Positions 3,581 through 30,962 of a DNA stretch of 64,000 nucleotides are shown here, in pieces. This DNA comes from Ignavibacteriales bacterium (GTDB lineage Bacteria; Bacteroidota; Ignavibacteria; Ignavibacteriales; Melioribacteraceae). The notes under the pieces are model-generated. The model saw nothing but the letters and a program-made list of their open reading frames with translations. It did no database searches and was not told where the DNA came from. A program made the position numbers and the translations under genes. Each line of letters starts with the position of its first letter. Position 1 is the stretch's first letter. The stretch is from NCBI GenBank assembly GCA_020635285.1, contig JACKAB010000007.1:385120-449119 (forward strand). Direction: 5' to 3'.

Positions 3581-3784
3581 TTTAAACTATTCTGAATAGT
3601 GTATAACATATCTGAATTGGGTAAGATAGGTGACAAAAATGTAGGGAAATATATTTTTTTGTAACTTCTGAGTAAATCATTATAATAAATTTAAAAAACA
3701 GATTTGAAAATTTGGACAAATATTTTTTTGCTTAGACTCACGAGTTTAATTTTTGTTTTTCACATAATTGAAGGATCATCCATA

Positions 3785-4765: not shown

Positions 4766-6220
4766 ACCGGAATATCAAATGAAAAAGTTGTTCCTTTGTT
4801 AGGTGCACTTGTTGTTGAAATTTCAACTTCATGAACTTCCAATATTTTCTTTACAATTGCCAAACCTAAACCCAAGCCCTTGGTCTTTTTTTTTCACTTC
4901 CTTGGTTAAATCTGTCATAAATGTGTGCAATTTCTTCCTCGCTTATTCCAACACCGCTATCAGAAACTTTAACCTTTATGCAGTCATTCTCATTTTTGAG
5001 TTGAACTAAAATCGATCCCCCTTCTGGAGTAAACTTTATTGCATTATCAATTAAATTTTGGAAAACCCGTTCAATCATTGCAATATCTGCAAAAGCTAAA
5101 GGTAAATCTTGTGGAGAATCTAACGTAAGATTAATATTTTTTTTAGATTCAGCTAAAATTAGGGTTCTTGTGTCTTATATCTTGTGCAAGTTCTGAAAGC
5201 TGAAAAGCTTCCAAATTTGGCTTTGTTTCTCTGGCTTCAAGTTTAGAAAGTTCAAATAGTTCCTCAACTAATTTTTTAAGCCGCTCTGTACTATTAAGTA
5301 TAGTTGTCAGATGTACCTTTCGTTCTTCTTCTGTCATAGTTTCACTTTTCATAAGAATAGTTTCGCTATAACCATGAATTGTGGCAAGGGGAGTTCTTAG
5401 ATCATGAGAAACATTTGCAACCAGTTCACGCCTTAAATTATCCATTGTTTTTAGATCTTGCATATTCTGAACAATTGTATCAGCCATTTCATTAAATGAG
5501 TTTGCAAATTCTTTTAGCTCTCCGGTTTGTTTTAAAGTTTATTCTGGCTTCTAAATCACCATTTTTAAATTGACGGATAACTCCAATCATTTTTCTAATG
5601 TTTTTTGTAATTAAAACTAAGGCAATGAAAGTAATAATTATAGCTGCAATAAGTGTAATAGCCGTTGACCGTAATGCCAGTCGGAGCATAAAACTACCGA
5701 ATAAAAATTGTGCAGCACTTTCAAATTCCTCACCGCTAATTATAATATATAAATAACCCCGCAATAAATTTCCTTCGTAAACTTCAGAAGCAGTAAATGT
5801 TGAATGTGCTTTTGGATCTCTGGGATTATTACCCATTACAAATTCTTTGCCTTCCTCAGCAACAAATTTTTTGTATGGGCTCAAGGTCAACGGATTCCAT
5901 TATTATTTTTTTCAGGAGCAAAATAAGTGATAATATTGCCGGTCGTATCCAATAAATAGACTTCCAAACTTGGATTTATAACCATTATTTCATGGAATAA
6001 TTTGTGTAATACTTCTTCATCTATTTCACCATTTGTGAAAAATTTATTTTCATCCACAATATGCGGAGCAATTTGAGATCCCATTTTTTGAACAGCTTCC
6101 TGGTAATACATTTCAGCAGTCCAAACTGCAATATAGAGGTAGACTGCTGACAATATCATTAGAATTGATAGGAAGGTAGATCCAATTTTCCAAGTAAGGG
6201 GTGTTAAAGAAATTCTTCAT
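4705..6220 (-). pseudogene. sensor histidine kinase (TM-sensor-HAMP-HisKA-HATPase), frame broken at least 5 times
   Basis: Fragments 5887..6159 (sensor), 5492..5890 (TM plus HAMP-like), 5149..5487 (HisKA: VSHDLRTPL) and 4866..5078 (HATPase: NLIDNAIKFTPEGG, DSGVGI). Own translation continues to [40 protein letters not shown] with a stop at 4705. ATG at 6220 gives MKNFFNTP, then shifts at a CCCC run into the TM helix. Confidence 0.8.
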
Positions 6221-10200: not shown

Positions 10201-13200
10201 CTCTTTTATTATTGATGAAAGATTTTCTTTGTCATCGGAAAGTTCTTCAATTTTAGAACTCAAATTATTTACTATTTCTTTATGCTTTTCAGAGTTTAAT
10301 TGAATTGCTTGGGTTGCTTCATTTAATTTATCGTTTAAATCAATAACTAAATTTTCTTTTTCACTTACTTGATCATGCAGAGTGTTAACTACATTAGAAA
10401 GCTCTTCTGCTTTATTCTTAATTATTTCATTAAGTTCAATTTGTTTGCTAATTTCAGCTTTTTGATTTGAATTAAACTCTACTTGAACTTTTATTTTTGC
10501 TTCAAGGTTCTTTTTCTCATCAGCAATTGATTCAATTTTTGCGCTTAAGTTGTTTATAATTTCTTTGCTCTTTTCTTTACTTTCTTTTAACTCAACTAAA
10601 TTAGATTCCCTTTCACGAATTTGTGTGTTCAAATCTTCAACCAAATTATTTGAGTAATCAACAGTTTCTTTTAACTTATTGATTTCTGTATCACGATTGG
10701 AAATATCTTCTCTTAATTTATCAATTGTGTTTTGGCTACCATCAACAATGATTTTGGTTTGGTTTATTTCATTGTTCAGTTCAGCAATTGAGTTTGTTAA
10801 TGAATTAATGTTTTCATCTTTCAAATCTAATTCAACAGTTAGCCCGTTAATTTGAGTTTGTTTTTCTTTTACATCATTGTTTAATTCATCAATTTGTTTT
10901 TGGTTAATTTCTATTTCAGATTTGAATGAATCGATCAAATTGCTTTTTTCATAAATAATATTATTAAGGCTTTCTACCTTTTCACTTAATGAACTAAGTT
11001 CGTTTTCTTGATCATAATTTTGTTGAGATAAATCATTTATGCGATTGTTTGAATCTTCAATATTTATTTTTAGAGATTCAATTTCAGAAACTTTTTCTTC
11101 AACGCTTAAAATTAATTTTTGTTCTGATTTGGTTCTTTCCAAGAGATCATTTTCCAGTTCAGTGTTTCTTTCAAAAGCCTTTTGATACTCAACTTTGATT
11201 TCTTCTAATTGTTTACTTGTGCCATCTAACTCAACATTTAATGAGTTAATGTTTTGATTTTGATTATTAACTACTTCTTTTAATTCATTTTCAGATGCTC
11301 TTAAGTTTGCAATTTTTAGTTCATCATCCTCTACAGTTTTGCTTAAATCGTTATTTATATTTATTAGTTCGTTAATTTGATTTTCTTTTTGATCTATGTT
11401 TTGTTTATAATTATCAACATCTTGATTAAGCTCTTCAATAACTTGTACTTTTTTAGTTAGTGAATCTATAGTTTCTGAAAGTTTAGTGTTTATGTTTTCT
11501 TTTTCATTATTACTAGCTTCCAACTCTTCTTTAAGTGATGAATTTAATTGTTCAAATTCATTTTTAGTCTTATTTAACTGGTTAATATCATTTTGAAGAG
11601 AATTTATATATTCATCTTTTTGTTCTAGATTTCTTCTTAATTCAAGTTCTTTGCCTTTAGCTTTTTCCAATTCTACGCCAACAGCTTCAACTTTGTTTTC
11701 TAAAGCCGCTATTAAATCTGCATTTTCTGCAAACTTTTGTTCATTTGATTTAAGTTTTTCTAGTAAGTTGTTGATTGAAGAATCTTTTTCAGTTATAAGT
11801 TTAATTTTCTCATCAAGCTGATCTGATAATGGTTTTAGTGCTTCTTCGGCCTCTTTTACCTTCTCGTTTAGATAATAAATATTTTTATTTAATTCGTTAT
11901 TTTCATCTTTAGTAATGGAGAGGTTGTCATTCAATTCAGTAATAAGGTGATCAGCTTCAGTAATTTTATGACTCTGTTTTACTATGATTTCGTCTTTGTC
12001 TTTTGCTGCTTTTTCTAACTCGTTTTTCTTATCTTCTATTACTTTAAAAGCTTGAGTTTGGTCTTCAATTATTTCATTTTTCTTATTAATAGAGTTGTTT
12101 AGTTTTGCCACTTGTGTCGAAAGACTTGAATTTTGCTCCTTTGCTTCTTTGATATTATTCTCATATCTACTTACATCAGCCTTTAGACTTTCAATTAGGT
12201 TACTTTTCGTGTTAATTTCAGCTTCATACTTCGCAACTTGCGTAGTTGCCTCAATTAGTTTAAAATTAAATATTTCCTTTTCTTCATTTAATTTTTCAAT
12301 TAAAGCTTTCGAATCATTTATAATTGCTTCATTCTCTTTGATCTTATCAAATTGTCTATCTATAATATCTTGTTTTTTTGAATCAGATTCTTTTAGGAAG
12401 TTTTCTTTTGCTTTTAATTCATCTAAGTGACTTGATTGTTTTGTAATTATTTCATTTTTATTTGCTTCAGAAATTTTCAATGATTCACTATATTCTTTTA
12501 ATTTTGTGATTTCATCATTCTTTAGCTCTAACTTTGCTCTCACCTCATAATTTTTATTTTCAAGAGATTTTTGAGCATTTAATGCGTTATTATAATTATC
12601 TTTAAGTGTATTTAATTGAGTTTCATAATTAGATACAACATCCTTAAATTTATTTAATTCATTGGTTGATTTTGAATATGAATCTTTCAATTGAGCAAGT
12701 TTATATGATTGTTCCCCAATCAACTCACTTTTATATTTATCTGCTTCTGAAATACTCTTTAATTCATCTTGTAGTTTTTGTAACTCTTTTGATTGTTCGT
12801 CTATTTTATTTTGTTTGATCTTATCATATTTTCCAATACTTTCAAATTTTTCTTCACTTTCACTCAATTTTTTATTTAGTATATTAATAGTTTTGTTCTT
12901 TTCCTCTTCTAGGGTTGAGTAAGAATTCTTAATATAATTTAATTCTTCAAGTTTGGCTTCATTTTGATTAAAATTATTTCGCAACGAACGCAATTCTTCT
13001 TGAAGTATTTTGTTGTTTTTAGAAAGCTCATCTTCTACAAGTTTGCTATTTTTTATCTGTTCTTCATATTCAAATAATTCCTCGGTAGATTTTTTCAAAC
13101 TTTCTTTTAAATTAATTAGTTCAGCTGAATTATTTTCATAATCTTGTTTTAAGTTATTGAATGATTTTTCCTTTGCTCTAAGATGTTCAATTTCATTTGA

Positions 13201-14226
13201 TAATTTTTTAATTTCTACTTTTATTTTTTCATCATCTGCTTTACTAAGATTTGAAGCAGATTTGAGATCATTTATTTGATCTCTAAAATTCTCAATTTCT
13301 ACTTCTGCTATACTTAACTTTTCCTTAAGGTCTTTCTCGCGTGTATTAAGTTCTTCTAATTTATTTTTTAGTGTTTTTATCTCAATTTCTTTTTCTTCAA
13401 AAATGCTCTCATCAATATTCTGAGAACTGTCAATACTTGAAATGGATTGTTCTAATTCAATAATTCTATTATTATGGTTGGTTATTTGTAATTTATAGCT
13501 TTTCTCGGCATCTAATAACCTAGAAAGCTGTTCATTTTGATTGTCAATTACATTATTCATTTGTCTAGTTGTGCTTTGGTATTCTTCAACTCTATTATAA
13601 AGGGAAGTGATCTGCTCTTCTTTTTTTCTGATTAAATCATTGTATCTGACTATTCTATCGTTTAATTCATCAATTACTTTTTCTTTCTTTTTAAGCTCGT
13701 TAAACGAAACTAAATCATCAGCATTTTGATTATTGAGATCAAATATTGATACTTTTTTTTGTCCAGATTCAAATTTAACATTTGCCTCTTTTAGTAATTT
13801 TTCAAGATTTGCCATTATGGTTTCATCAACATTTTCCATTGAGTTTTTTAAATTGCTTAGTATAGAATTGTATTGAACTAGAAGAATATCCATATTTTCT
13901 TTAGAAATTTCAGCAAGTTTTGAGTCCATAATTGATAAAGCAGTAGATTTGCGTTTAGAATTTGCAAAAAATTCTTCTTGTCCAAAAAACTCATTTGGAG
14001 AAATAATAGAAGTAGTGGTTTTAGAAAAGCTGTGTTTTTTTAATAAATTTATTTCACCTTCAATCACTAAATATATTGAATTTGAAGGATCACCATTTTT
14101 GAATAAGATTTCTCCTTCATCCAATTCAATTATTTCTAAATCCAAATCCTCAAGTGTAATATTTGAAATGTTAGTATTTTTAAATAAATCATTACTTTTT
14201 AACACAGTGCTAATGTTGTTTTGCAT
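7258..14226 (-). CDS. giant 2322-aa protein: N-terminal cyclic-nucleotide-binding domain, ~2000-aa coiled coil, C-terminal STAS (anti-sigma-antagonist-like) domain
   Basis: The single ORF is uninterrupted. The N-terminus LFKNGDPSNSIYLVIEGEINLLKK...FFGQEEFF...RKSTALS fits the cNMP-binding beta-roll pattern. About 2000 residues are E/K/N/L/I-rich with heptad character. The C-terminus LIIDLAQCEFVDSTVLGVLVSSLKKTMSLGGDLRIV...ITRMDKVFKLFDNIEDA fits SpoIIAA/STAS, with the DS(T) position conserved. Confidence 0.85.
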   Translation of the reverse strand: MQNNISTVLKSNDLFKNTNISNITLEDLDLEIIELDEGEILFKNGDPSNSIYLVIEGEINLLKKHSFSKTTTSIISPNEFFGQEEFFANSKRKSTALSIMDSKLAEISKENMDILLVQYNSILSNLKNSMENVDETIMANLEKLLKEANVKFESGQKKVSIFDLNNQNADDLVSFNELKKKEKVIDELNDRIVRYNDLIRKKEEQITSLYNRVEEYQSTTRQMNNVIDNQNEQLSRLLDAEKSYKLQITNHNNRIIELEQSISSIDSSQNIDESIFEEKEIEIKTLKNKLEELNTREKDLKEKLSIAEVEIENFRDQINDLKSASNLSKADDEKIKVEIKKLSNEIEHLRAKEKSFNNLKQDYENNSAELINLKESLKKSTEELFEYEEQIKNSKLVEDELSKNNKILQEELRSLRNNFNQNEAKLEELNYIKNSYSTLEEEKNKTINILNKKLSESEEKFESIGKYDKIKQNKIDEQSKELQKLQDELKSISEADKYKSELIGEQSYKLAQLKDSYSKSTNELNKFKDVVSNYETQLNTLKDNYNNALNAQKSLENKNYEVRAKLELKNDEITKLKEYSESLKISEANKNEIITKQSSHLDELKAKENFLKESDSKKQDIIDRQFDKIKENEAIINDSKALIEKLNEEKEIFNFKLIEATTQVAKYEAEINTKSNLIESLKADVSRYENNIKEAKEQNSSLSTQVAKLNNSINKKNEIIEDQTQAFKVIEDKKNELEKAAKDKDEIIVKQSHKITEADHLITELNDNLSITKDENNELNKNIYYLNEKVKEAEEALKPLSDQLDEKIKLITEKDSSINNLLEKLKSNEQKFAENADLIAALENKVEAVGVELEKAKGKELELRRNLEQKDEYINSLQNDINQLNKTKNEFEQLNSSLKEELEASNNEKENINTKLSETIDSLTKKVQVIEELNQDVDNYKQNIDQKENQINELININNDLSKTVEDDELKIANLRASENELKEVVNNQNQNINSLNVELDGTSKQLEEIKVEYQKAFERNTELENDLLERTKSEQKLILSVEEKVSEIESLKINIEDSNNRINDLSQQNYDQENELSSLSEKVESLNNIIYEKSNLIDSFKSEIEINQKQIDELNNDVKEKQTQINGLTVELDLKDENINSLTNSIAELNNEINQTKIIVDGSQNTIDKLREDISNRDTEINKLKETVDYSNNLVEDLNTQIRERESNLVELKESKEKSKEIINNLSAKIESIADEKKNLEAKIKVQVEFNSNQKAEISKQIELNEIIKNKAEELSNVVNTLHDQVSEKENLVIDLNDKLNEATQAIQLNSEKHKEIVNNLSSKIEELSDDKENLSSIIKETESELTHLKKHISILEKTIEERERALEELSSELKIETTEIEKRLIDKTRQAEELQKSVLYLEEQLEIVQKGHNEVESFQEEQIEEKNAEIERLNQIENELRNSLSEKEKEYNKVFSEIEFLSSDLDIYKNQAEGKSEEVESLKADLNNYKIKLEDKNSVELLLNQQIKELNEKIAAVKDELEESKSNLESWIETENELKNSLAEKENQIQEFQNAIEENKSREAQLNQQINELSENISEVEKELEETSNNSELWKESESRLKNSLVEKENQIQEFKNAIEENKSREAQLNQQINELSEKVTEAKNQLAEGNNRLESFESVENELRNNLDSKNSELKELNSEIENLNEDLKAYQKQISNNYYEFNQVKTELNDYKLKAEEFNSIEEQLQNQIAELNQKLSNYNSNVSEKDQKIDLLAETIKQFEEKLNEKEEALEKNKRIIEEQNQTISEIEKELENEKLADNQYEHFNEKLQNLTLEHSVVIEENKNVHEENAVLVEQIENLKNQLNDVHNSNNSDSEQIQSISEEVEKLKHQLEQAQNLLVEKDRKLDTLEEELNAEKNGDSETTILLKKKIEALELTVVELNEVKESFEAEINNKSELIAELQSSVNNFNGDDTASEVAKQYEDKLQELQSELEKLNESKGSFESVIEEKNSIIEEQGRRLSQVKLQKTDREIEFIKLKEQIEDFKNEIEKLNEAKNHFKTEANKKNEELELISQRLEMINNQSLDNESDEERLNLIIENQVVKIAELQEQLDLLKAQNNSTNNNVSENITVDNEPMQVYTNPFDQETKVEITTEEQFEELTDEKENIPTFSFGNPITDSDEIVDFEHSENDDLELEELTKENNKIDKNSIVSELTSFDSDLPQFSQFSHLLYGDVSVVNVNLPRATMEIASKFKEYLNALFENHNSKLIIDLAQCEFVDSTVLGVLVSSLKKTMSLGGDLRIVWGDNTESSMFYITRMDKVFKLFDNIEDAIQSYLD
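9240..9720 (-). repeat. in-gene 189-bp (63-aa) tandem repeat within the coiled-coil gene
   Basis: The stretch ttttcacttag(c/t)tcatttat(t/c)tgctgatttaattgagcttcccgtgattt... recurs with a 189-nt offset (9309 versus 9498). The protein units are NSLAEKENQIQEFQNAIEENKSREAQLNQQINELSE... and NSLVEKENQIQEFKNAIEENKSREAQLNQQINELSE..., with diverged flanking copies. Confidence 0.8.
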
Positions 14227-14524
14227 TTCCTCGTCCTCTTGAACTTTCTAGATTAAATTATTATCGAGCAGTTTAGATTTTTTTTTAATTTTGTTTAAAT
14301 TTCCTCACTGATACTTTTAATTTCAAATATTGTGCCGTAAAACGTAAAAAGTGGTAATTTTTACTTGCTGTTTTTGTAGATTTTCATTCACAACCTTGAT
14401 GCTTAAAAACTGTTAGATTTGCAATGAAAATCAATTTGGTAATATAAAAATCCATATAGATGCAAATACAACTATATCTGGTGGTTTTATAATTCCCGAT
14501 TAATGTAACAATATGATACAGAAC

Positions 14525-14538
14525 GTGATCTGTGTCAC
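14525..14538. promoter_or_regulatory. CRP/FNR-like palindrome GTGA-N6-TCAC in the divergent intergenic region
   Basis: cGTGAtctgtgTCACt lies at 14525-14538. It overlaps a second palindrome, ACAGAacgtgaTCTGT (14516-14531). The site sits between the cNMP-domain giant gene and the cytochrome cluster. Confidence 0.25.
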
Positions 14539-14686
14539 TATTATAAGAATTCCTTATTTGTAACTCTGGCTAAAAATAGCCAAATAGGTGTTGAGGCATT
14601 TTGTTGTTATAATAAAATACTTTTGCTAATTTACACTAAGCTTTATAGCCTAAATTATTTTTTCAACTAAAATTGAGAAATTTGCT

Positions 14687-15576
14687 ATGAATAAACTTGT
14701 GCATAAATTTTATATTGGTTTTTTTATAGTTGTTACCATTTCTGTTTTGGTTTTGTTAATTATAAACGGATACTCTTATTATACTTCGCCATTTGAAGAA
14801 CGCTTTTTTTACCTAACCACAATTCATTAAAACCAAGTGGATTTATTGGTCATGGAATAGGAATTATAGGTTCATTTGTTAATGATTTTTGGAGTTTTAA
14901 TTTATATGATTAGAAAAAGAGTTAAATTTTTATGCGCTTAGGAATTTTAAACATTGGCTTGAACTGCATATTTTTTTTGCACTGTTGGACCAATTTTAGT
15001 TCTATTTCACACTGCTTTTTTAAGTTTGGTGGAATTGTTTCTGTTAGTTTTTGGAGTATGGTTGCAGTTTTTTTAGTGGAATTATTGGAAGATTTATTTA
15101 TGTTCGCATCCCTCGTACAATTGAAGGAAATGAAATGAATATGCAGCAAATAAATAATCTCAATGATAATCTTACAATAAATCTGGCTACAAATTATAAT
15201 TTACAAAAATACAACTTTAGAAAAAATTGCTGAACTATCTGATATTAAAAGTAAAGGAAGAGGTTCATTTAAATGAATTGTTTTTATCTCTGATTCCAAA
15301 TTATTTTGAAAAAGGAAAAAAATAAATACTATCAATTTCAGCATTAAAATTAAAAGCAAATAATATTTCTAAAACAAATAGAAAAGAAATTATTAAGATT
15401 ATAAAAAAAAAATCAGTACTTCAAATAAAATACATTATCTTCGTTTGATGCAAAGTTTGTTTAAATATTGGCATGTCGCACATTTACCGTTTGCTTTAAT
15501 TATGCTTATAATAATGTTTATTCACATTGTTGTTACTATTACTTTTGGTTATAGGTGGGATTTTTTAAATGCTTAA
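14687..15576 (+). pseudogene. polytopic membrane protein with conserved His residues (possible b-haem or ferric-reductase-like anchor), heavily frameshifted
   Basis: Stitched from several frames: MNKLVHKFYIGFFIVVTISVLVLLIINGYSYY ... KPSGFIGHGIGIIGSFVMIFGVLIYMIRKR ... LGILKHWLELHIFLCTVGPILVLFHTAFKFGGIVSVSFWSMVAVF..GIIGRFIYVRIPRT ... YWHVAHLPFALIMLIIMFIHIVVTITFGYRWDF. At least 5 frame changes, mostly at A/T runs. Confidence 0.45.
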
Positions 15577-15734
15577 AAATGAGAATAATTGTTCGATATT
15601 TTAATACTACATGTATTAATTACATGTAATATTGTGATACTATATTATAAATTGTGTTTATAGACCAAGTACTATCAATATTTTTAGTTTGGTATATAAA
15701 TTGATGGACTATCTTATTAATTATTTTTAGGTAA

Positions 15735-17091
15735 ATGGATTGGAAGTATTAATTGAATATATTTTTTACAGTTTTAGTAGTTATTATCTTAATTGCAATA
15801 GTCCTTTTTGCTTACTACAGTAAACATAAAAAGCAATCTCAAGTATAACTACCCGTAAAATTGATAAAGCAAAAGAATTTGGATTTCATGAACCAGTTTC
15901 ACTTCACCCTGTGATTAATGAAGATATTTGCATTGGAAGTGCTGCATGTGTAGCAGCTTGTCCAGAAAATGATATTTTAGGTCTTAGTTGGTGGAAAAGG
16001 TAGACTTGATTAATGCTTCACATTGTATATAGGGCATGGCGCTTGTTTTCATGCATGTCCTGTTGAGGCTATAACATTAGTAATGGGAACAGAAAAACGT
16101 GGTGTTGAATTACCTCATGTTAGTCAAGATTATGAAACAAACGTTAAAGGTATTTACATTGCTGGAGAATTAGGCGGAATGGGTCTAATTAAAAATGCTG
16201 TTGAACAAGGCACAAAAGCAATGGAAAAGCATTCTCAAAAATCCTTCCCAAAAAATAAAAAAGTAAATATGATGTAATTATAATTGGTGCAGGTCCAGCT
16301 GGAATTGCTGCATACTTTAACTGCGGCAAAAAACAATCTAAAATTTTTAACACTTGAACAAGATAGCTTGGGAGGAACTGTTTTTACATTTCCAAGAGCT
16401 AAAAAATTGTTATGACTTCACCAATGGAATTGCCATTATACGGCAAAAGTAAAACTACAAGAAACTTCAAAATCTGAATTACTTGATTTATGGAATGAAG
16501 TTTTATCAAAGAATAATATTACAATAAATCAAAATTTGAAAAAGTTTTGGAGATAATTAAATACCAAGATTATTTTGAGATAATTACAAATCAAGAAAAA
16601 TATACTTGTTCTAAAGTTTTACTCTCTATCGGTAGAAGAGGTTCTCCAAGAAAATTAGGAGTTCCAGGCGAAGATACAGAGAAAGTTGCCTATCGTCTAT
16701 TAGAGCCAGAATTAATTAAAAATAAAAAGGTAATTGTTGTTGGTGGTGGAGATTCAGCAATAGAATCAGCCCTATTATTGGCTGAGGATGAAACAAATCA
16801 AGTTACACTTTCGTATAGATCTAATTCATTTTTTAATAGAATAAAACCAAAGAATCTAGAAAAAATTGAACTAGCAAAAAATCAAAATAAGATAAATGTT
16901 AATTTATGAATCGAACTTAGTTGAAATAAATGAAAGTTGATGTAAAAATGAAATTAAAAAATGGAAGTATTGTTCCAATAGAAAATGATTTAGTTTACAT
17001 TTTTGCTGGAGGAGAACTACCAAATAAATTTCTTGATAAAATTGGCATTAAGATTACGAAGAAATATGGAGAGGTGGTATTAAAACATTAA
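15735..17091 (+). pseudogene. TM-anchored 4Fe-4S ferredoxin domain plus FAD/NAD(P)-dependent (thioredoxin-reductase-like) oxidoreductase, heavily frameshifted
   Basis: Stitched translation: CIGSAACVAACPENDIL ... CIGHGACFHACPVEAI (two CxxxCP-containing Fe-S motifs, each preceded by an upstream Cys), YDVIIIGAGPAGIAA (dinucleotide fold), KVIVVGGGDSAIESALLL (second fold), FAGGELPNKFL. ORFs 16023..16277 and 16547..16909 are fragments. At least 6 frame changes. Confidence 0.6.
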
Positions 17092-18665
17092 TCAAAATAT
17101 TATTTCTGTCATTAATATTTATAGATGTTTTAAAAGCTCAAATTTCACCCGGCGATTTGAGTAATGCTCATGCAGAATTTGAAGGAATTAGTAATTGTAC
17201 AAAATGTCATGACTTAGGGAAATCAGTTTCAAAAGCAAAATGCTTAAACTGCCATACAGAAATAATTGATTTAATAAACGAAAATAGAGGTTATCACCTA
17301 CAAAAAGAAGTAATTCAAAAAGATTGCTGGGTTTGTCACGGGGAACATTTTGGAAGAAATTTTCAAATAGTAAAATTTGATGAAAAGAATTTTGATCATG
17401 ATAAAAGTGGATTTGAACTAAAAGGAAGTCATAAAAAGTTAGAATGTAATAAATGTCATAAAGCCGAATTTATCACAATAGAAAAATTTAAGAAAAAAGA
17501 AAAAACATTTATAGGCTTAACTCCGCAATGCAAAACCTGTCACGAAGATGTTCATCAAGGAACTCTTGATGACAATTGTGCAACTTGCCACAATGAAGAA
17601 AAATTTAAACCCGCAATTAATTTTAAACATGATAACACACAGTTCAAGCTTACGGGAACTCACTTAAAAGTAGATTGTGAAAAATGTCATGTTAAGGAGA
17701 ATAGAAATAACAAAACGTTTCAAAAATTTGCTGATGTAAAATTTAATAGTTGCAATTCGTGTCATAAAGATTTTCACCAGGGTAAATTTGGTAATGAATG
17801 TGAAACTTGTCACAATACAAATTCATTTAATGAAGTAAATGTTTTAAATGGATTTGATCATTCCAAAACTAATTTTCCCTTATTGGGTAAGCACAATAGA
17901 GTTAAATGCGAAAATTGTCATAAAGAAAGTTTAACAAGTAAACCTAAATTTGCTAAATGTTATGATTGTCATGAAGATTTTCATAAAGGTGAATTTATTA
18001 AAAATAATATTCAGACAGACTGCAAAGAATGCCATAATGAAAAAGGCTTTTCACCTTCTCAGTTTACAATTGAAATGCATAACAAAACCAGTTTTGAATT
18101 GATAAATTCCCATGCAGCAATTCCTTGTATATCGTGTCACTTAAAAGAAGAAAGTTGGAAATTTAGAATCAGTGGCGAAAAATGTATCTCATGCCATTCA
18201 AACATCCATGAAAGTGAAATTGGCGCAGATTTTTTTGATGAAAATAATTGTCAATTTTGTCACTCAACATTATCTTGGAAAAATGTAAAGTTTGATCATA
18301 CCACGACCGAGTTTGAGTTAATAGGCAAACATAAATCAACGGAATGCAGAGATTGTCATTTCACTTTTGATGGATCAAAAATAATTGCTCAAAAATTTAA
18401 GCAACTAAATAGTAATTGTACACAATGTCACAATGATATTCATATTGGACAATTTATTGAGGATGGAAAAGAGCTTTGCAAAAACTGTCATACTTCATTT
18501 AATTGGCAGCCAAGTTTATTCGATCATAGTAAAACAAGATTTGCATTAGCTGGTGCACATCTAAATGTAAAATGTGAACAATGCCATAAACAAATTGTTG
18601 AAAATGATATTACTTTTATCAAATATAAAATTGAGGATGTAAGATGCATAAGTTGTCATTCTTAA
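17079..18665 (+). CDS. multihaem c-type cytochrome, 20 CxxCH motifs
   Basis: I counted 20 CxxCH motifs in ORF 17157..18665 (CTKCH, CLNCH, CWVCH ... CEQCH, CISCH), with recurring F.H......L.G.H....C..CH units. A signal-like segment KTLIKILFLSLIFIDVLKAQ is in frame upstream back to 17079 with no in-frame ATG. An ATG at 17066 is one base out of frame, so the true start is uncertain. Confidence 0.85.
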   Translation: MKTLIKILFLSLIFIDVLKAQISPGDLSNAHAEFEGISNCTKCHDLGKSVSKAKCLNCHTEIIDLINENRGYHLQKEVIQKDCWVCHGEHFGRNFQIVKFDEKNFDHDKSGFELKGSHKKLECNKCHKAEFITIEKFKKKEKTFIGLTPQCKTCHEDVHQGTLDDNCATCHNEEKFKPAINFKHDNTQFKLTGTHLKVDCEKCHVKENRNNKTFQKFADVKFNSCNSCHKDFHQGKFGNECETCHNTNSFNEVNVLNGFDHSKTNFPLLGKHNRVKCENCHKESLTSKPKFAKCYDCHEDFHKGEFIKNNIQTDCKECHNEKGFSPSQFTIEMHNKTSFELINSHAAIPCISCHLKEESWKFRISGEKCISCHSNIHESEIGADFFDENNCQFCHSTLSWKNVKFDHTTTEFELIGKHKSTECRDCHFTFDGSKIIAQKFKQLNSNCTQCHNDIHIGQFIEDGKELCKNCHTSFNWQPSLFDHSKTRFALAGAHLNVKCEQCHKQIVENDITFIKYKIEDVRCISCHS

Positions 18666-21600
18666 TATTTACATTTTTCATATCCTCATTGATATTTTCT
18701 CAATCTCCCCATGGAGATAACTTTAACTTTGATTGCGAGGAATGTCATTCAACTGAAAACTGGAAAATAGATTTTAAAACTTTAGATTTTGATCATTCCG
18801 AAACTAACTTTGAATTAATTGGTCAACATAAAATATTAGATTGTCAATCATGCCACCAAACATTAAAGTTTTCAGAAACAAAAAATAATTGTCTTGATTG
18901 TCACAGTAATGTTCATCAAAATACAGTTGAACCTAATTGCCAGCAATGTCATAACTCAAACTCTTGGGTTGTTACTAATATTGATGAAATGCATGATATG
19001 AGCAGATTTCCTTTGCTGGGTGAACACAAACGTGCTGATTGCAAACAATGCCATGCATCTGTTAATAATTTGTTGTTTCCCACTATTGGGGTTCAATGTA
19101 TTGATTGTCATTTGAGTGATTATCAGTCAGCACAAAATCCAAATCATATTTCTGCCGGTTTTTCAAAAGAGTGCGAAGATTGTCATCAAGTAACTGATTT
19201 AGAATGGAATAAGGCAAATGTTACTCACGACTTTTTCCCTTTAAACGGTGGTCATAAAATCAGCAATTGTTTTGATTGTCATTCACAAAATACTTTTGAG
19301 GGATTAACTCAAGAATGTGTAACGTGTCATCAGAAAGATTTTAATTCCACCAGTGATCCAAATCATGTTAGCGCTGGATTTACAACTAATTGTATTGAAT
19401 GCCACACAACTAATCCGGGTTGGCAGCCTGCATCATTTAAGGAACATGATAATTTCTTCGCTCTAATTGGCGCGCATAAAGTAATTGAAAATGATTGTGC
19501 AAAATGTCATACAACCGGCTATTCTAATACACCGGATCAATGCTATGATTGTCATCAATCAAATTATAATAGCACAAAAGATCCTGCACATCAAGCAGCG
19601 GGATTTGGAACTGATTGTGAGAGTTGTCATAATACAGTAGCTTGGGAGCCAGCAAGTTTTGACCACGATAATCAATTTTTCCCAATTTATTCTGGCAAAC
19701 ATAATAACCAATGGAATGATTGTGCAGATTGCCATACTAATTCAGCAAACTTCCAAGTTTTTGCGTGTGTTACGTGTCATGAACATAATCAGTCAGATAT
19801 GGATAAAGAGCATAGTGGAATTGGAGGATATACTTATGAAAGCACAGCTTGCCTTGCTTGTCATCCAACCGGAAATAAAGAAGATGGATTTAATCATTCA
19901 ACAACTAATTTCCCATTGCTTGGTGCTCATACAACTATTCAATGTTCTGATTGTCATTCTGCTGGATATCAAGGAACATCAATGGAATGTAGTTCTTGCC
20001 ATTTAGCTGATTTTCAAAGTTCTACCAATCCAAATCACCAACAAATTGGTTTAGATCAAAATTGTGAACAGTGCCATACAACTAATCCAGATTGGCAGCC
20101 GGCAACTTTTCCAGTTCATAATGATTTTTATTTATTAGAAGGCGCTCATGCAAGTATAGCCAGCGATTGTAATAGTTGTCATTCAGGTGATTACGTGAAT
20201 ACAGGTAATCTTTGTATTGATTGCCATACCAATGATTATAACAATACCAGCAATCCCAACCATCAATCAACTGGTTTTGGAACAGATTGTGAAACTTGTC
20301 ATTCTCAAAATGCTTGGCAGCCTGCAACCTTTGATCATGATAATCAGTTCTTCCCAATATACTCGGGCAAGCACAATAATGAATGGAATGAATGTTCAGA
20401 CTGCCATACTGCATCAACAAATTTTCAAGTTTTTGAGTGTATTAACTGTCATGAACATAATAAAACAGATACAGATGATAAGCATAAAGAAGTTCAAGGT
20501 TATCAATATATCAGCACAGAATGTTTAGCATGTCACCCAACAGGAACATCAGATGGCGCTTTTAATCATGCTACTTCGGCTTTCCCATTAACAGGCGCGC
20601 ACACAACTCAAGAATGTTCAGATTGTCATCAAGGTGGATATTCTAATGTCTCATCGGAGTGTTCTGAATGCCATCAGCAAGATTTTAATAGTTCTCTTGA
20701 ACCAAACCATGTTGAAGCAGGAATTGAAATTGCTTGTGTAGATTGTCACAATACTGTGGCTTGGAAACCTTCAACATTCAATCATGAAACAACCGGCTTT
20801 GAATTGATTGGAGGACACAATTTGAATCAATGTTCTAATTGTCACTCAGGAAGCACATCAAATGCTACATCAATTTGTTATGATTGTCATCAAAGCGATT
20901 ATACAACGGCACCTGAACATACTGCACAAAGTTATCCGCAAACTTGTCAGGATTGTCATAATACAACAAATTGGAATCAAACAACTTTTGATCATAATAA
21001 CACTAACTTTGCATTAACAGGAGCTCATTTAAATACAACTTGCGCTTCTTGTCATACATCTGGATATGCTGGAACTTCTACAGAATGCAATACTTGTCAT
21101 CAGACAGATTTTACAAGCGCGGTTAATCCAAATCATTCGGAAGCTGGAATTTCAAATAAGTGTGAAGATTGCCATTCTACAAATGCTTGGAATCCATCTG
21201 AATTTAATCATTCAGCGACCGGATTTGAGTTAATTGGAGGACATAATTTATCTCAATGTTCAAGCTGTCACAATGTAAGCACAGCAAATGCAACTCCAGA
21301 ATGTTACTCTTGTCATTCTGCAAATTATAGCAACGCACCAGATCATGTTTCACAGAATTATCCAAAGACATGTCAAGATTGTCATAACACCACAAATTGG
21401 AATGACACAAACTTTGATCATAACAATACAAATTTTGCATTAACCGGTTCTCACACTAACGTGAATTGCAATGATTGTCATTCAGCTGGATACTCTGGTA
21501 CTTCTACTGTTTGTGCTGATTGCCACCTTACTGATTTTAACAATTCATCAAATCCAAATCATAGCAGTTTAAGTCTATCAACAAATTGTGAAACTTGTCA

Positions 21601-22123
21601 TACAACAAATCCAAATTGGCAACCAGCGACTTTTGCTGTACATAATGATTTTTACGTTTTGGAAGGTGCGCATGCATCAATATCAAATGATTGTGCAACT
21701 TGTCATAATAGTAATTATAACAATACTTCAAATACATGCTACGGTTGTCATCAAAGCGATTATAATGCCACAACAAATCCAACTCATTCAAGCTCGGGTT
21801 TTGGAACTGCATGTGAAGATTGCCATTCACAAAATGCTTGGCAACCTGCAACTTTTGATCATGATGGGCAGTACTTTCCAATATATTCTGGTAAGCATAG
21901 GCAAGAATGGAATGCCTGCACAGATTGTCATACAAATCAATCTGACTATTCCATATTCTCTTGTTTAGAATGTCATGAACACAACAAGACAAAAATGGAT
22001 GATAAGCATAAAGAGGAAAATGGATATTCTTATACTAGTGCTGCTTGTTATGATTGTCATCCACAAGGGAAATCTAACGCTCAACTTGAAAGATTCTTTC
22101 GAATAGAGAGTATTCAGAGATGA
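18644..22123 (+). CDS. giant multihaem c-type cytochrome, 1159 aa, 46 CxxCH motifs, modular
   Basis: Signal peptide MHKLSFLIFTFFISSLIFSQ. I counted 46 CxxCH motifs. Modules of ~150-165 aa recur (NP.H...GF...C..CH, FDHD.QFFPIYSGKH, CHEHN). The start overlaps the upstream cytochrome by 22 nt. Confidence 0.9.
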   Translation: MHKLSFLIFTFFISSLIFSQSPHGDNFNFDCEECHSTENWKIDFKTLDFDHSETNFELIGQHKILDCQSCHQTLKFSETKNNCLDCHSNVHQNTVEPNCQQCHNSNSWVVTNIDEMHDMSRFPLLGEHKRADCKQCHASVNNLLFPTIGVQCIDCHLSDYQSAQNPNHISAGFSKECEDCHQVTDLEWNKANVTHDFFPLNGGHKISNCFDCHSQNTFEGLTQECVTCHQKDFNSTSDPNHVSAGFTTNCIECHTTNPGWQPASFKEHDNFFALIGAHKVIENDCAKCHTTGYSNTPDQCYDCHQSNYNSTKDPAHQAAGFGTDCESCHNTVAWEPASFDHDNQFFPIYSGKHNNQWNDCADCHTNSANFQVFACVTCHEHNQSDMDKEHSGIGGYTYESTACLACHPTGNKEDGFNHSTTNFPLLGAHTTIQCSDCHSAGYQGTSMECSSCHLADFQSSTNPNHQQIGLDQNCEQCHTTNPDWQPATFPVHNDFYLLEGAHASIASDCNSCHSGDYVNTGNLCIDCHTNDYNNTSNPNHQSTGFGTDCETCHSQNAWQPATFDHDNQFFPIYSGKHNNEWNECSDCHTASTNFQVFECINCHEHNKTDTDDKHKEVQGYQYISTECLACHPTGTSDGAFNHATSAFPLTGAHTTQECSDCHQGGYSNVSSECSECHQQDFNSSLEPNHVEAGIEIACVDCHNTVAWKPSTFNHETTGFELIGGHNLNQCSNCHSGSTSNATSICYDCHQSDYTTAPEHTAQSYPQTCQDCHNTTNWNQTTFDHNNTNFALTGAHLNTTCASCHTSGYAGTSTECNTCHQTDFTSAVNPNHSEAGISNKCEDCHSTNAWNPSEFNHSATGFELIGGHNLSQCSSCHNVSTANATPECYSCHSANYSNAPDHVSQNYPKTCQDCHNTTNWNDTNFDHNNTNFALTGSHTNVNCNDCHSAGYSGTSTVCADCHLTDFNNSSNPNHSSLSLSTNCETCHTTNPNWQPATFAVHNDFYVLEGAHASISNDCATCHNSNYNNTSNTCYGCHQSDYNATTNPTHSSSGFGTACEDCHSQNAWQPATFDHDGQYFPIYSGKHRQEWNACTDCHTNQSDYSIFSCLECHEHNKTKMDDKHKEENGYSYTSAACYDCHPQGKSNAQLERFFRIESIQR

Positions 22124-23737
22124 TAAAAAAAATAATCATATTACTTCTATTTATTGTCGGTGCTTTATCAGGTCAACAAAATGATGATAATAAAAATTTT
22201 AACAGGTAAAGTCGAATATATTTCTTCTCAATTTATTTACGTAAATTTTGAAAATACTGATGGAATAAATATTGGCGATACTCTCATTATATCAGAAAAC
22301 GAAAAAATGATTCCCAAATTAATAGTCCAAACAAAATCTTCGCGTTCTTGTGCAACTTTTCCAATTAAAGAAAAATTAAAAAAAGGAGATGAAGTTTTTG
22401 CAATTATAATAAATCAAATCGATACAAATTTAATTTTAGCAGAGGAGAAAAAAAACGAAATTGCAGTTATTGAATCAGAAGAAGTAAAACCAATAACAAA
22501 AAGTAGTTATGGAAAGTTTAATACTTCGAAAGATAATATTTATGGAAGGTTTAGTGCGACCGGCTATTCAAATCTATCAAATGAAAATAGTAATGAGAAT
22601 TATCAAAAGTGGCGATATTCTTTATCCTTTAATGCCGATAAAATTAATAACTCTAAATTTTCTTTTTCAAATTATATTACTTTTAGATATAGAGCCGATG
22701 AATGGAATTACACCACTTCGCACATAGGTGATGCAGTTAAAATTTATGATCTCGCATTAACTTATGAATTAATTGAGAAAACAAATTTTATTCTGGGTAG
22801 AAAAATTAACCCTAAAACTGCAAATATTGGTGCTGTAGATGGTTTGCAATTTGAAACTAATTTTAATAAATATTCACTTGGAGCTATAATAGGTTCTAGA
22901 CCAAACTTTAATGATTATGGTTATAACATAAATCTTTTCCAAATGGGTGGATATGTAAGTTGGGATGATTCTATTGGAGTTGGAGCAATGCAGAATACAT
23001 TTTCAATTTTTCAGCAAATGAATCATGGCAGTACGGACAGAAGATTTTTTTATTTACAGCACACCAATAACATTGTTAGTAATGTATATTTATTTTTATC
23101 CTCGGAAGTTGACTTATTTAAAAAAGAAAACAATAAAAATAGCAATGATTTTAGACTCACAAGTTTTTATACTTCGCTAAGATATTCTCCAGTCAGATGG
23201 CTTTCCGCAAATGCAAGTTATGATGCAAGGAAAAATGTTATTTATTACGAAACATTTAAGAATTATGCTGACCAACTAATAGAATCAGCACTTAGGCAAG
23301 GGTTTAGATTAAGATTAAATCTGCGACCAATAAATTATGTATTTGTAAGTTTATATTCCGGTTATAGATTTAGGGATTCAGATATCAGACCATCAAGGAA
23401 TTTTGGAGGTTCTATAACCCATTCAAGAATTCCATATTTAAGACTTTCTGCAAACCTTAATTTCATTGGGCTTAACACAAGTTATTTAGATGGAAATATA
23501 ATTGGATTACGTTTAACAAAAGATTTATTTGATGGTTTAGTAAATACCACTTTAGGTTATAGAAAAGTCAATTACACTTTTATCAGTACGGATAGTAAAT
23601 TACTGCAAGATATTTTTCAAATGGATTTATCATTAAGAGTTAATAAAAGTCTTTCATTTTCTCTAAGTTTTGAAGGAACTTATGAAGACAAATCAAGTTA
23701 TTCAAATATTTATACAAGCTTCTCATGGAGGTTCTAA
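22120..23737 (+). CDS. outer-membrane beta-barrel protein (putative porin partner of the cytochromes); one frameshift after the signal peptide
   Basis: ATG at 22120 overlaps the cytochrome TGA (ATGA) and gives MIKKIIILLLFIVGALSGQQNDDNK. A frame change at an A/T run near 22190 leads into ORF 22154..23737. The protein has alternating hydrophobic and Y/R/S/N-rich strands throughout and ends in SFSWRF, an aromatic OMP terminus. Confidence 0.65.
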
Positions 23738-24512
23738 ATACTTATTTCACCTTCCAAATAAAGAGCTGCATTGCCGGAAATTTTTACTCTTTTATCCAAA
23801 TATTCACAGAACAATTCACCGCCTCTTTTAGAAACTTGTAAAGCATTGAGTTTTGTTTTATTCAATCTTTTAGCCCAATAAGGAATTAACAAAGTGTGAG
23901 CATAGCCGGTAACTGGGTCTTCATCAATACCAACATCTGGTGCAAAAAATCGTGAAACAAAATCTACATCATTTCCTTGTGATGTAATTATTACTCCATG
24001 TGTGTTTAGTTTTAAAAAATCTTTTATTTGAGGTTTTAATTTCCTAACAATTTCTTCATTCTCAAAAACACAAATAGTTGATTTGTCGAATAAAATTTCA
24101 CTTGGTTTAACTCCTAATGCTGCGATTAAAATCTCATCAAACTCAATTGGCTTGGGATTTCTTGCCGGAAAATTTAAACTGATTAATTCATTTTCCTTCG
24201 TTACAATTAATTTGCCGCTTCTTGAGTTAAACTCAATTTTGTTTTCTGTAAAATTCAAAATATTGAATAATACAAATGAAGATGCCAGCGTGGCATGACC
24301 ACATAAATCAACTTCGCTGGTTGGCGTGAACCATCTAATTCTATAACCAGAGTCTTCCAAAACAAAAAAGCAGTTTCGGCTAAATTATTTTCTGCAGCAA
24401 TGTTTTGCATCACCAAATCATTCAACCAATTTTCTAAAGGAACAACTGCTGCGGGATTTCCGTTAAAAATATTTTTTGTAAATGCATCTACTTGGTAAAG
24501 TTTTAATTTCAT
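23734..24512 (-). pseudogene. PhzF-family isomerase-like protein, one frameshift
   Basis: ORF 24255..24512 (MKLKLYQVDAFT..FNGNPAAVV...AAENNLAETAF) and ORF 23734..24360 (IRWFTPTSEVDLCGHATLAS...) together make a full-length PhzF-like protein. The frames overlap around 24300. Confidence 0.75.
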
Positions 24513-24601
24513 TGCTTACCCATTTATTTATAATTTTGAAAAACTATATTTATCAAATTACAAAAAATAATTGAGATTCTTATAATGACAAAACAAAAGA
24601 T

Positions 24602-26011
24602 ATGCCAATTTCTGAATTTAGAAAATATGGCCACGAGATGATTGATTTTATTGCAGACTATATTGATAATGTTGAATCAAAACCCGTATTAGCAAAAGTT
24701 AATCCCGGTGAAATAAAGGAAAACTTCCCCAAAGTCCGCCAGTAAAAAGTGAAAGTATGGAAGATGTTTTTAATGATATCAACAAAATTATTATGCCGGA
24801 ATTACTCATTGGAATCACCCAAACTTTATGGCGTATTTCAACTCAACTGCATCAATGCCGGGTATATTAGGAGAAATTTTAAGCGGAGCGTTTAACACAA
24901 ACGGAATGATTTGGAAAACGGCCCCTGCTTCAACTGAATTAGAAGAAGTTGTATTAGTTGGTTCCGGCAAATGCTTCAACTTCCACAAAAGTTTTTTGGG
25001 ATTATATATGACTTAGCTTCTGTAAGCTCAATGCATGCAATTGCCGCAGCTAGAGAAGAGGCAAAACAAAAATACCATAACTTTGATATTATAAAACTTA
25101 GACTTTATTGCTCCGAGCAAGCACATTCATCAATAGAGAAGGGAGCAATTACGTTGGGTTTACCATTATCATCAGTTGTGAAAATTAAAACTGATGAACA
25201 ATTTAGAATGATTCCTTCTGAGCTGAATAATGCAATTAGAGAGGATATTGAAAAAGAACTTCAGCCATTTTGTGTTGTTGCAACTGTTGGAACTACATCA
25301 ACAACTAGCATAGATCCAGTTGATGAAATTGTAAAAGTTTCTAAACAATATAATTTGTGGTTGCATGTGGATGCCGCTCATGCCGGCTCTGCAGCAATAG
25401 TTCCGGAAGTTAGACAAATTTTAAGCGGAGTTGAAGATGCGGATTCATTAGTTGTTAATCCGCACAAATGGCTTTTTGTTCCTATAGATTTAAGCGTTTT
25501 ATTTACGAGTAAACCTGAGGTAATAAAAAAAGCTTTTTCTATTGTGCCGGAATATTTGAAAACCGATGAAGAAGAAAAAGTTATTAATTACATGGATTAT
25601 GGAATTCAACTTGGCAGAAGATTTCGTTCGCTAAAATTGTGGTTTGTATTTCGTTATTTTGGAGTTGAAGGATTGCAAAATATTATTCGTGAACATTTGC
25701 GAATAGGAGAATTATTTGCTGATTTTATTGATCGAAACCCAAACTTTGAAAGATTGGCTCCAACTCCATTAAGTACAATATGTTTTAGAGCATTGCCAAA
25801 TAAGAAGATGAGCGAAAATCAGCTAAATGAATTCAATAAAAGATTAATGGATGAAATAAATAATTCTGGTAAATTATTATTAAGTCACACAAAATTAAAC
25901 GACAAATTTACAATTAGATTAACAATCTCGGGAATAAGAACAGAAGAAAAACACATTCTTCAAGCGTGGGAATTGATAAAAGAAAAGTTTAATATGTTAA
26001 TCCAAAACTAG
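24602..26011 (+). pseudogene. pyridoxal-dependent aromatic-amino-acid (DDC/TyrDC group II) decarboxylase, at least 3 frameshifts in the 5' third
   Basis: Stitched translation: MPISEFRKYGHEMIDFIADYIDNVESKPV ... GITHWNHPNFMAYFNSTAS ... then ORF 24971..26011 with NPHKWLFVPIDLS (PLP-Lys motif). Confidence 0.8.
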
Positions 26012-30954: not shown

Positions 30955-30962
30955 TCTGTCTT

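Follow-up and report, generated by a model that had tools for sequence, protein, structure and literature searches.

Gene cluster at 14687-23737

The subject of this study is a 64,000-nucleotide stretch of contig JACKAB010000007.1 from the Ignavibacteriales assembly GCA_020635285.1 (positions 385,120 to 449,119, forward strand; hereafter the window). Its G+C content is about 30%, and its proteins have homologues that carry the labels Ignavibacteriae or Melioribacteraceae. Positions 14687-23737 hold five genes, which encode a polytopic inner-membrane protein (gene 1), a membrane-anchored Fe-S flavoprotein (gene 2), two multihaem c-type cytochromes and an outer-membrane barrel protein (Table 1). 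The original prediction, made from the DNA letters, had proposed that these genes specify a complete extracellular electron-transfer conduit. In the present analysis, the observation was partly confirmed and the interpretation was partly supported. The five genes probably (about 0.6) represent a trans-envelope conduit of the Ignavibacteriota and Bacteroidota that resembles the porin-cytochrome cluster PCC3 and that has an NAD(P)H-type Fe-S flavoprotein as its input.

Table 1. Genes of the five-gene cluster, with positions in the window.
Feature	Position	Strand	Remarks
Inner-membrane protein	14687..15576	+	orthologues 291 aa; frameshift-aware alignment; broken in window
Membrane-anchored Fe-S flavoprotein	15753..17091	+	orthologues 443 aa; broken in window
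20-haem c-type cytochrome	17079..18665	+	frame intact; probable ATT start
46-haem c-type cytochrome	18644..22123	+	1159 aa; frame intact; signal peptidase I signal peptide
Outer-membrane barrel protein	22120..23737	+	orthologues ~536 aa; 4-nt insertion shifts frame in window

In the window, the reading frame is unbroken in the two cytochrome genes alone. The 66 CxxCH motifs counted in the original prediction were all found again, 20 in the open reading frame (ORF) 17157-18665 and 46 in the ORF 18644-22123; together with 22154-23737, which contains no Cys-rich motif, these are the only long forward-strand ORFs within 14687-23737. Neither cytochrome ORF contains CxxxCH, CxxxxCH or CxxCK variants. 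The 46-haem cytochrome is composed of 15 tandem trihaem modules of 70-78 residues plus one terminal haem, and the 20-haem cytochrome of about 6.5 c7-like trihaem modules, with 25-26 residues per haem in both proteins (25.2 in the larger one). The larger cytochrome has 92 Cys and 96 His residues, 50 of the latter lying outside the motifs, and the smaller one has exactly 20 His residues beyond its CxxCH motifs. Since the number of extra His residues matches that of the haems, all haems are probably bis-His ligated. Both proteins match the Pfam families Cytochrome_C7, Cytochrom_c3_2 and Mtrc-MtrF_II-IV, the last of these above its cut-off, and weak matches to the DmsE/MtrA decahaem family were also found. 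The signal peptides of all three exported proteins of the cluster are of the signal peptidase I type. On the strength of its signal peptide, (M)KTLIKILFLSLIFIDVLKAQ, the 20-haem cytochrome is presumed to be periplasmic. The N-terminus of the 46-haem cytochrome is MHKLSFLIFTFFISSLIFSQSPHG, and its first Cys residue lies within haem motif 1.

No ATG, GTG or TTG precedes the signal peptide of the 20-haem cytochrome in its frame. An in-frame ATT (17079), located 5 nt after GGAGAGGTGG, overlaps the flavoprotein stop (17066-17090). We compared this site with related loci, among them L001, a related 4.5-Mb metagenome-assembled genome (MAG), and L003, a contig of the closely related MAG GCA_020437665.1. 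The GGAGAGG and the ATT are kept in L001, L003 and L004, whose proteins are about 70% identical, and the distant L008 has an ATG at the equivalent place. Since the ATT and the Shine-Dalgarno-like GGAGAGG are conserved in relatives, an AUU start at 17079, rather than a lesion, is likely. A 5' frameshift in this gene was also considered, because the ATG at 17066 is out of frame; it was rejected, since intact relatives have the same in-frame ATT arrangement. The predicted 22-nt overlap of the two cytochrome genes is present and has the same length in all six relatives compared (L001, L003, L004, L006, L007 and L008). The overlap, 18644-18665, encodes both the last haem motif of the first cytochrome (CISCHS*) and the start of the next signal peptide (MHKLSF).

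The barrel gene adjoins the cytochrome genes and is translationally coupled to them through ATGA, in which its ATG at 22120 overlaps the stop of the 46-haem cytochrome gene, as had been described. The signal peptide MIKKIIILLLFIVGALSGQQ is encoded from this ATG, and the barrel frame indeed ends in SFSWRF. The AlphaFold model (pLDDT 86.5) consists of a small N-terminal beta domain, a disordered linker and a barrel of 22 strands as assigned by DSSP, which supplies the strand count that the original prediction had asked for. A C-terminal Phe is present in 114 of 120 barrel homologues. By estimate, not by computation, a 22-strand barrel would in principle be large enough for a chain of c7-type modules. 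No Pfam or NCBIfam family, including MtrB_PioB (PF11854), matched the barrel, and a profile search against sequences in the Protein Data Bank (PDB) gave nothing relevant. The Foldseek search returned generic outer-membrane barrels (ushers, Occ porins and TonB-dependent receptors) with TM scores of 0.3-0.45.

The first two genes have intact orthologues in L003, which encode 291 and 443 residues. The His-rich membrane protein of the original prediction is present, with five transmembrane (TM) helices in its model. In the 291-residue orthologue, TM3 contains W91LELH95-x13-H109, TM4 contains S131GIVG135 and TM5 contains W260HVAH264-x13-H278. Both Wx3Hx13H motifs and the SGxxG motif are present in 115 of 116 full-length homologues, and His95, His109, His264, His278, W91, W260 and S131-G132-x-x-G135 are invariant. 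The motifs are kept even among members that are about 30% identical to one another, the named ones of which belong to Acidobacteriota and Calditrichota. The positive-inside rule would place H95 and H264 towards the cytoplasm and H109 and H278 towards the periplasm. The four invariant His residues thus placed have the geometry expected for two stacked bis-His haems b, a putative two-haem-b wire across the membrane. The protein also has a helical cytoplasmic insert of about 100 residues between TM4 and TM5 and a single conserved Cys. Among 21 of its relatives, sub-threshold Pfam matches were obtained to DUF4405 in 12 (best E 1.6e-5) and to Ferric_reduct in six (best E 2.6e-4). A profile search of the membrane protein against PDB sequences returned noise only.

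The assignment of gene 2 as an Fe-S and FAD/NAD(P) oxidoreductase stands, since Fer4 and Pyr_redox_3 were matched in its fragments; its description as a 2x[4Fe-4S] protein could not be established. The flavoprotein begins with a TM helix followed by basic residues. Its Fer4 dicluster domain, which matches Pfam Fer4_10, contains the motifs CxxSxxCxxxCP and CxxHxxCxxxCP (15911-16075 in the window). There are thus six Cys residues, three per motif, and the second Cys is replaced by Ser in the first motif and by His in the second in all 119 homologues compared. The two CxxCxxCxxxCP motifs (eight Cys) of bacterial ferredoxin were not found in the flavoprotein or in these 119 homologues. The invariance of the replacement suggests 3Fe-4S clusters or Ser/His-ligated 4Fe-4S clusters. 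The remainder of the protein is a YpdA/TrxR-like FAD and NAD(P) domain with the dinucleotide motifs GAGPAG and GGGDSA. It scored below the equivalog cut-offs of TIGR04018 (164 vs 340) and TIGR01292 (91 vs 343), and CxxC was found in none of 120 homologues. The flavoprotein has only the FAD/NAD(P) fold in common with disulfide reductases of the TrxR/YpdA type. A role of genes 1 and 2 in supplying thiol reductant for cytochrome maturation was rejected, since CxxC is lacking in the flavoprotein and just one Cys is conserved in the membrane protein.

Origin of the broken reading frames

Genes 1 and 2 had been listed as ORFs in the original prediction. All three frames of 14687-17100 contain only fragments of 25-120 residues. 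We aligned the intact orthologues of L001 to the window with a frameshift-aware protein-to-DNA alignment. Gene 1 (14726-15564) required nine frameshifts and one stop, and gene 2 (15819-17088) required 11 frameshifts and one stop. In the barrel gene, the frame of the body is open only from 22136, and the distance from the ATG to the stop is 1618 nt. Since 1618 is not a multiple of 3, there is a +1 frameshift at 22186-22193, 70 nt after the ATG, and the break is a 4-nt insertion at this position. The "538-aa" ORF reported for the barrel is thus a repaired reading, the ATG and the body being in different frames. Four of the five genes would be broken if the non-canonical, conserved ATT start of the 20-haem gene were counted. 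After stitching, the gene 1 product shows 77% identity to its L001 orthologue and the gene 2 product 80%, values no lower than those of the intact cytochrome (73%) and the barrel (68%).

The window was compared with natural alleles of the region. The difference from L003 is 0-1.5% over most of the flanks (12429-14228, with bins of up to 3%; 14429-14828; and 17029-18628), reaches 15% in the intergenic bin 14229-14428, and is 9-26%, with indels, at 14829-17028. A second natural allele, in L005 from MAG GCA_020437685.1, is open in a single frame and shares 93% identity with the window over 15858-17007. L005 and L003 are 80.9% identical to each other (up to 19% DNA difference), the differences falling mostly at third codon positions. 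In the comparison with L003, L004 and L005, the segment 14829-17028 thus stands out as a hot spot where alleles diverge or recombine among strains with 99-100% identical flanks.

A three-way comparison of the window, L005 and L003 over the gene 2 stretch 15858-17007 gave 158 sites at which the window agrees with L005 and not with L003, 52 at which it agrees with L003 and not with L005, eight private to the window and six at which all three differ. The substitutions concentrate at third codon positions, and those in the broken genes look shaped by selection. The indels present a different picture. The stretch contains 13 indel events, none of them shared by L003 or L005, and in every case it is the window that has the extra bases. 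In seven, the base or bases of one allele stand beside those of the other at a variable site: the Leu codons CTT and TTA appear as CTTA at 15983, CTC and TTG as CTTG at 16008, and GC-TAC and GC-ATC as GCATAC at 16312.

Four short-read metagenomes, three from activated sludge and one labelled marine sediment, were also compared. Their contigs have flanks essentially identical to the window and centres that are about 5% different with many gaps, and the depth of one run, X4, is about 8.8 throughout. The natural contigs are all in frame at the compared sites. Neither L002 nor the contigs of three metagenomes have the 4-nt insertion of the barrel gene; in the fourth, X4, the site is not covered by any contig. 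Of the words sampled from 14687-18700, a fraction of at most 0.51 was found in any listed public run.

Private 1-nt indels of the same type occur in patches in unrelated neighbouring genes, at 3550-5867 and 24363-24957. The sites differing from the metagenome contigs are 3550, 3653, 3724, 3826, 4387, 4478, 4537, 4581, 4651, 4750, 4886 and 5867 in the first patch, and 24363, 24561, 24594, 24717, 24797 and 24955 in the second. The first patch covers the Peptidase_M90 ORF (3812-4471) and the ORF-poor stretch after it. A PhzF gene is broken by one frameshift (near 24365-24371) and a pyridoxal-phosphate-dependent decarboxylase gene by three. The 7-kb ORF 7258-14226 has no private indels. L007 is a likewise affected long-read contig of this lineage. 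Patches of the window appear to have been left unpolished in the assembly.

The excess of private indels over private substitutions, the allele-merging insertions and the patchiness point to a mixed-strain consensus or polishing artefact. Most likely, the frame lesions arose as errors in a long-read consensus of mixed strains and do not reflect pseudogenization. It is quite improbable that the cluster is truly being lost in the source organism and that genes 1, 2 and the barrel gene are real pseudogenes. The window does contain more than 20 frameshifts in a region that is allelically hypervariable among strains, and the activated-sludge run X2 has a low-depth joint from 14672 to 17079, via 25 unrelated bases, in which both genes are deleted (depth 2.3 vs about 116). 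Natural gene decay would be expected to favour deletions and to bring far more substitutions. Within the gene 2 stretch that was compared, however, private indels outnumber private substitutions, insertions that merge the bases of two alleles dominate, and the substitutions are mostly of the synonymous type; housekeeping neighbours show the same indels, and all natural contigs are in frame at the lesion sites. The original prediction had named truly dead first genes as a finding that would speak against it; most likely they are alive, the lesions resembling assembly artefacts. Apparent pseudogenes in this assembly would thus be patches of consensus artefact, and decay calls from such MAGs need read-level checks.

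Conservation and likeness to known systems

An intact syntenic cluster is present in L001, L003, L006 and L008. In a scan of one genome per GTDB species, the membrane protein was found to be encoded in at least 583 species genomes. The loci of the best 80 of these at least 583 genomes were examined, and 55 of them, with at least 9.5 kb downstream, were classed as long. The best 80 genomes belong to Ignavibacteriota and Bacteroidota, the latter represented by Bacteroidales, Prolixibacteraceae, Rikenellaceae, Saprospiraceae, Lewinellaceae and Lentimicrobiaceae. A flavoprotein gene lies beside the membrane-protein gene in 78 of the 80 loci. The flavoprotein, the 20-haem cytochrome and the barrel are also encoded in 51 of the 55 long loci, and in 50 of the 55 the genes have the same order and strand: membrane protein, Fe-S flavoprotein, 20-haem cytochrome, 13-69-haem cytochrome and barrel. 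The five genes therefore form one unit of fixed order in other species, as had been proposed, and with such a recurrence chance is not an issue. The cluster is conserved in hundreds of species of Ignavibacteria and Bacteroidota.

In most of the 80 loci the first cytochrome carries 20 haems; in Saprospiraceae and Lewinellaceae it carries 23. The second varies from 13 to 69 haems across the loci, and the verified complete genes encode 28, 46, 46 and 52. About half of the loci have an extra gene between the membrane-protein and flavoprotein genes, which the window does not have. In L006 (10885-11490) and L007 (10886-11470), the product of this gene is a tetratricopeptide-repeat (TPR) protein whose TPR domain is of the CcmH/CycH type; it may serve as a chaperone for apocytochromes. 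The individual proteins are widespread: the membrane protein gave 7359 matches, mostly of 289-291 residues among the matches listed, and was also matched by 3384 clusters at 50% identity (E <= 1e-3); the flavoprotein has at least 8000 homologues (every one of 8000 scored candidates matched), of about 443 residues among the matches listed; and the barrel has more than 1251, of about 536 residues, all labelled hypothetical.

The closest of the published systems in architecture is PCC3 (He, Barco, Emerson and Roden 2017, PMC5566968), in which a porin is combined with an extracellular multihaem cytochrome (median 34 haems) and a periplasmic cytochrome (median 21 haems, range 21-27). The inner-membrane protein of PCC3 and PCC4 has about 300 residues and five TM helices, with SGxxG on TM4 and Wx3Hx13H on TM3 and TM5; it was likened to the ferric-reductase domain and to quinone-active cytochromes b, and contact with the quinone pool was proposed (PMC5566968). 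PCC3 was reported in Alpha-, Beta- and Gammaproteobacteria, in Fe(II) oxidizers, and the model proposed for it is one of electron uptake (PMC5566968; Gallionellaceae survey PMC9900912). The system is a prediction and is biochemically uncharacterized (PMC5566968, PMC9900912).

The cluster of the window matches the membrane-protein signature of PCC3 exactly. Its periplasmic cytochrome has 20 haems as compared with about 21, and its second cytochrome, with 46 haems in 15 modules at about 25 residues per haem, resembles the large, repeat-built, predicted extracellular PCC3 cytochrome in size, in the low residue-to-haem ratio and in the variable haem number. An outer-membrane barrel is encoded beside the cytochrome genes in both systems (51 of the 55 long loci). 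Three differences are found. PCC3 as described has no flavoprotein gene, whereas a membrane-anchored Fe-S flavoprotein is constantly associated with the present cluster; PCC3 occurs in Proteobacteria and the present cluster in Ignavibacteriota and Bacteroidota; and PCC3 porins were predicted to have up to 42 TM segments, as compared with 22 strands here. The likeness was judged from architecture and motifs as described. Since four of the five parts match PCC3, the cluster is nearer to known paradigms than the original prediction had claimed. Of the novelty claimed there, the flavoprotein and the taxonomic range stand, and only these two, the extension to the Fibrobacterota-Chlorobiota-Bacteroidota (FCB) group and the linked Fe-S flavoprotein, are new relative to PCC3. 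In the literature searched, we found no paper that mentions both PCC3 and Ignavibacteria, and no description of the five-gene cluster among papers on multihaem or porin cytochromes of Bacteroidota. Arbour et al. (2020) noted that some cytochromes of Ignavibacteria have 33-40 haems, and also noted a PCC3-type cluster in Burkholderiales with the composition "24 + 49 haem + porin".

The MtrCAB, MtoAB and PioAB systems share with the cluster the principle of a multihaem cytochrome chain passing an outer-membrane barrel. MtrCAB, however, has 10 + 10 haems with CymA as the input, as compared with 20 + 46 haems and a predicted haem-b protein plus flavoprotein here; the cluster has no lipoprotein cytochrome, and its barrel has no MtrB_PioB match. 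The MtrB barrel has 26 strands. The Geobacter Pcc (OmbB-OmaB-OmcB) and the Ignavibacterium album cluster are, like the present one, porin-cytochrome clusters with a barrel smaller than MtrB, and the second of them occurs in Ignavibacteria; the barrel was compared with Geobacter OmbB by description. In the I. album Pcc (IALB_1837-1840), the periplasmic cytochrome has 400 residues and 14 haems, and the motifs of the outer-membrane cytochrome are atypical (PMC4245776). This Pcc is a different locus from the present cluster, which has 66 canonical motifs, far more haems and an encoded inner-membrane module.

Two further families resemble single parts of the cluster. The NADPH oxidase (NOX)/ferric reductase family (PF01794) and MsrQ-type proteins share the two Hx13H pairs on TM3 and TM5 and two predicted stacked haems b, which would conduct electrons across the membrane from a flavin/NAD(P)H site on the cytoplasmic side. 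The oxidases and ferric reductases, however, have six TM helices and a fused FNR-like domain, whereas the cluster has a five-helix protein and a separate flavoprotein with two dinucleotide domains and an Fe-S relay. The acceptor of these oxidases and reductases is O2 or an Fe(III) chelate; that of the cluster is predicted to be a cytochrome c chain. The 46-haem protein resembles the Geobacter c7 polymers of the GSU1996 type (TIGR04257) in its tandem, bis-His trihaem c7 modules of about 70-78 residues. GSU1996 has four modules, as compared with 15 here; the TIGR04257 score of the 46-haem protein is 30.2, below the cut-off of 40, and its gene is linked to that of an outer-membrane barrel.

Electron path, alternatives and neighbouring genes

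We infer the cofactor binding, the localization, the direction of flow and the physiological role of the cluster from its sequence. Electrons of NAD(P)H would enter at the cytoplasm-facing, membrane-anchored flavoprotein and pass through its FAD to the two atypical Fe-S clusters. They would then reach the two haems b of the five-helix protein, the one on the cytoplasmic side before the one on the periplasmic side, each haem being ligated by one His of TM3 and one of TM5. From haem b they may be transferred to the periplasmic 20-haem chain and further to the 46-haem chain, which would run through the 22-strand barrel or be docked on it and extend outside the cell. The final acceptors are expected to be insoluble or macromolecular, such as Fe or Mn oxides, humics, electrodes or partner cells. 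The flavoprotein and the membrane protein together might constitute a split NOX-like (ferric-reductase-like) input that bypasses or supplements the quinone pool.

Several observations weigh against this path. None of the 21 members of the membrane-protein family examined matched PF01794 or DUF4405 above the Pfam gathering score, the model of the membrane protein is of low confidence (pLDDT 68.8), and Foldseek gave nothing with E < 1 for it. MtrB was not among the top 50 Foldseek matches of the barrel. No exported protein of the cluster has a lipobox; at the signal-peptide cleavage sites of both cytochromes L-x-x-C is absent, unlike in proteins of the MtrC/OmcA type. The C-terminal domain of the type IX secretion system (T9SS) is also absent from both cytochromes, so that neither signal offers the 46-haem protein a route to the surface. 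A search for RNA-seq runs found none. The window's allele of genes 1 and 2 was not seen in any short-read run, which leaves a small probability of real decay in that one strain. In addition, the flavoprotein would be an accessory rather than the input if the membrane protein contacts the quinone pool, as in the proposal of He et al.

The last point leads to a rival explanation, in which the conduit is the same, the inner-membrane protein is a quinol oxidase or quinone reductase, and the flavoprotein is not the entry point. The flavoprotein could then feed the menaquinone pool in the manner of a type-II NAD(P)H dehydrogenase, or it could have a side function such as regulation or repair. He et al. 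(PMC5566968) likened the protein with two Hx13H motifs to quinone-active cytochromes b, and PCC3 as described in Proteobacteria has no flavoprotein gene. Moreover, the membrane-protein and flavoprotein genes do not always adjoin each other, since another gene (TPR/CcmH-like in L006 and L007) intervenes in about half of the FCB loci. The two genes are nevertheless neighbours in 78 of the 80 loci and co-oriented in 50 of the 55 long loci. The flavoprotein is itself anchored in the membrane and contains an Fe-S relay in which one cluster motif is invariably His-substituted, an arrangement that would suit protein-to-protein transfer; no quinone-site motif was identified. We therefore regard a quinone-linked membrane protein as unlikely. 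That a dedicated, quinone-independent NOX-like route, leading from NAD(P)H through the flavoprotein and a di-haem-b protein directly to giant c7-polymer cytochromes and out by way of the 22-strand barrel, is common to Ignavibacteriota and many Bacteroidota is a tentative proposal, possible though on balance doubtful. If true, fermentative FCB bacteria would have a widespread, undescribed kind of extracellular electron transfer that serves for "electron disposal".

The conduit might also operate inward, accepting electrons from Fe(II), reduced minerals or cathodes, or the main role of the giant cytochromes might be to store electrons, as a capacitor does. The definition of PCC3 came from Fe(II)-oxidizing Proteobacteria, where it was modelled for uptake, and large haem numbers have been proposed elsewhere as capacitors. 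Most Ignavibacteria and Bacteroidota live as organoheterotrophs, and Fe(III) reduction is known from Ignavibacteria in culture. Bis-His haems of the c7/c3 type usually have low potentials. The haems of the cluster are apparently all bis-His ligated, and the reduction of NAD(P)+ from them against the membrane potential would be energetically unfavourable. Since a heterotrophic, Fe(III)-reducing or anode-associated lifestyle has been reported for Ignavibacteria, both the thermodynamics and the lifestyle favour outward flow, and we consider an inward conduit or a mere store very unlikely.

If the cluster works as proposed in the outward, flavoprotein-fed path, the capacity for extracellular electron transfer would be far commoner in Bacteroidota and Ignavibacteriota than is expected from the Mtr and Pcc models. 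Both groups are plentiful in sludge, sediments and anode biofilms. The Fe-S flavoprotein would then be the first concrete hypothesis for the feeder of the PCC3-type inner-membrane protein, the partner of which has been unknown since 2017.

Some other genes of the window were also noted. The protein of the reverse-strand ORF 7258-14226 (2322 residues) carries a cyclic-nucleotide-binding domain at its N-terminus and a STAS domain at its C-terminus. It is conserved beside the cluster (2369 residues in L001), looks like a coiled coil by its E/K/N-rich sequence, and shows internal length variants in the metagenome contigs, such as a joint from 9591 to 12545. Also on the reverse strand, at 26716-32546, two ORFs of 1412 and 527 residues, separated by 8 nt, correspond to a single 2211-residue gene of L001 (Aminotran_1_2). 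The separation may be another break or a real split. At 44381-47773, a protein of 1130 residues combines a CotH-kinase domain, a lamin-tail domain and a beta-helix with a C-terminal T9SS sorting domain. The sorting domain makes it likely that a type IX secretion system is present in the organism.

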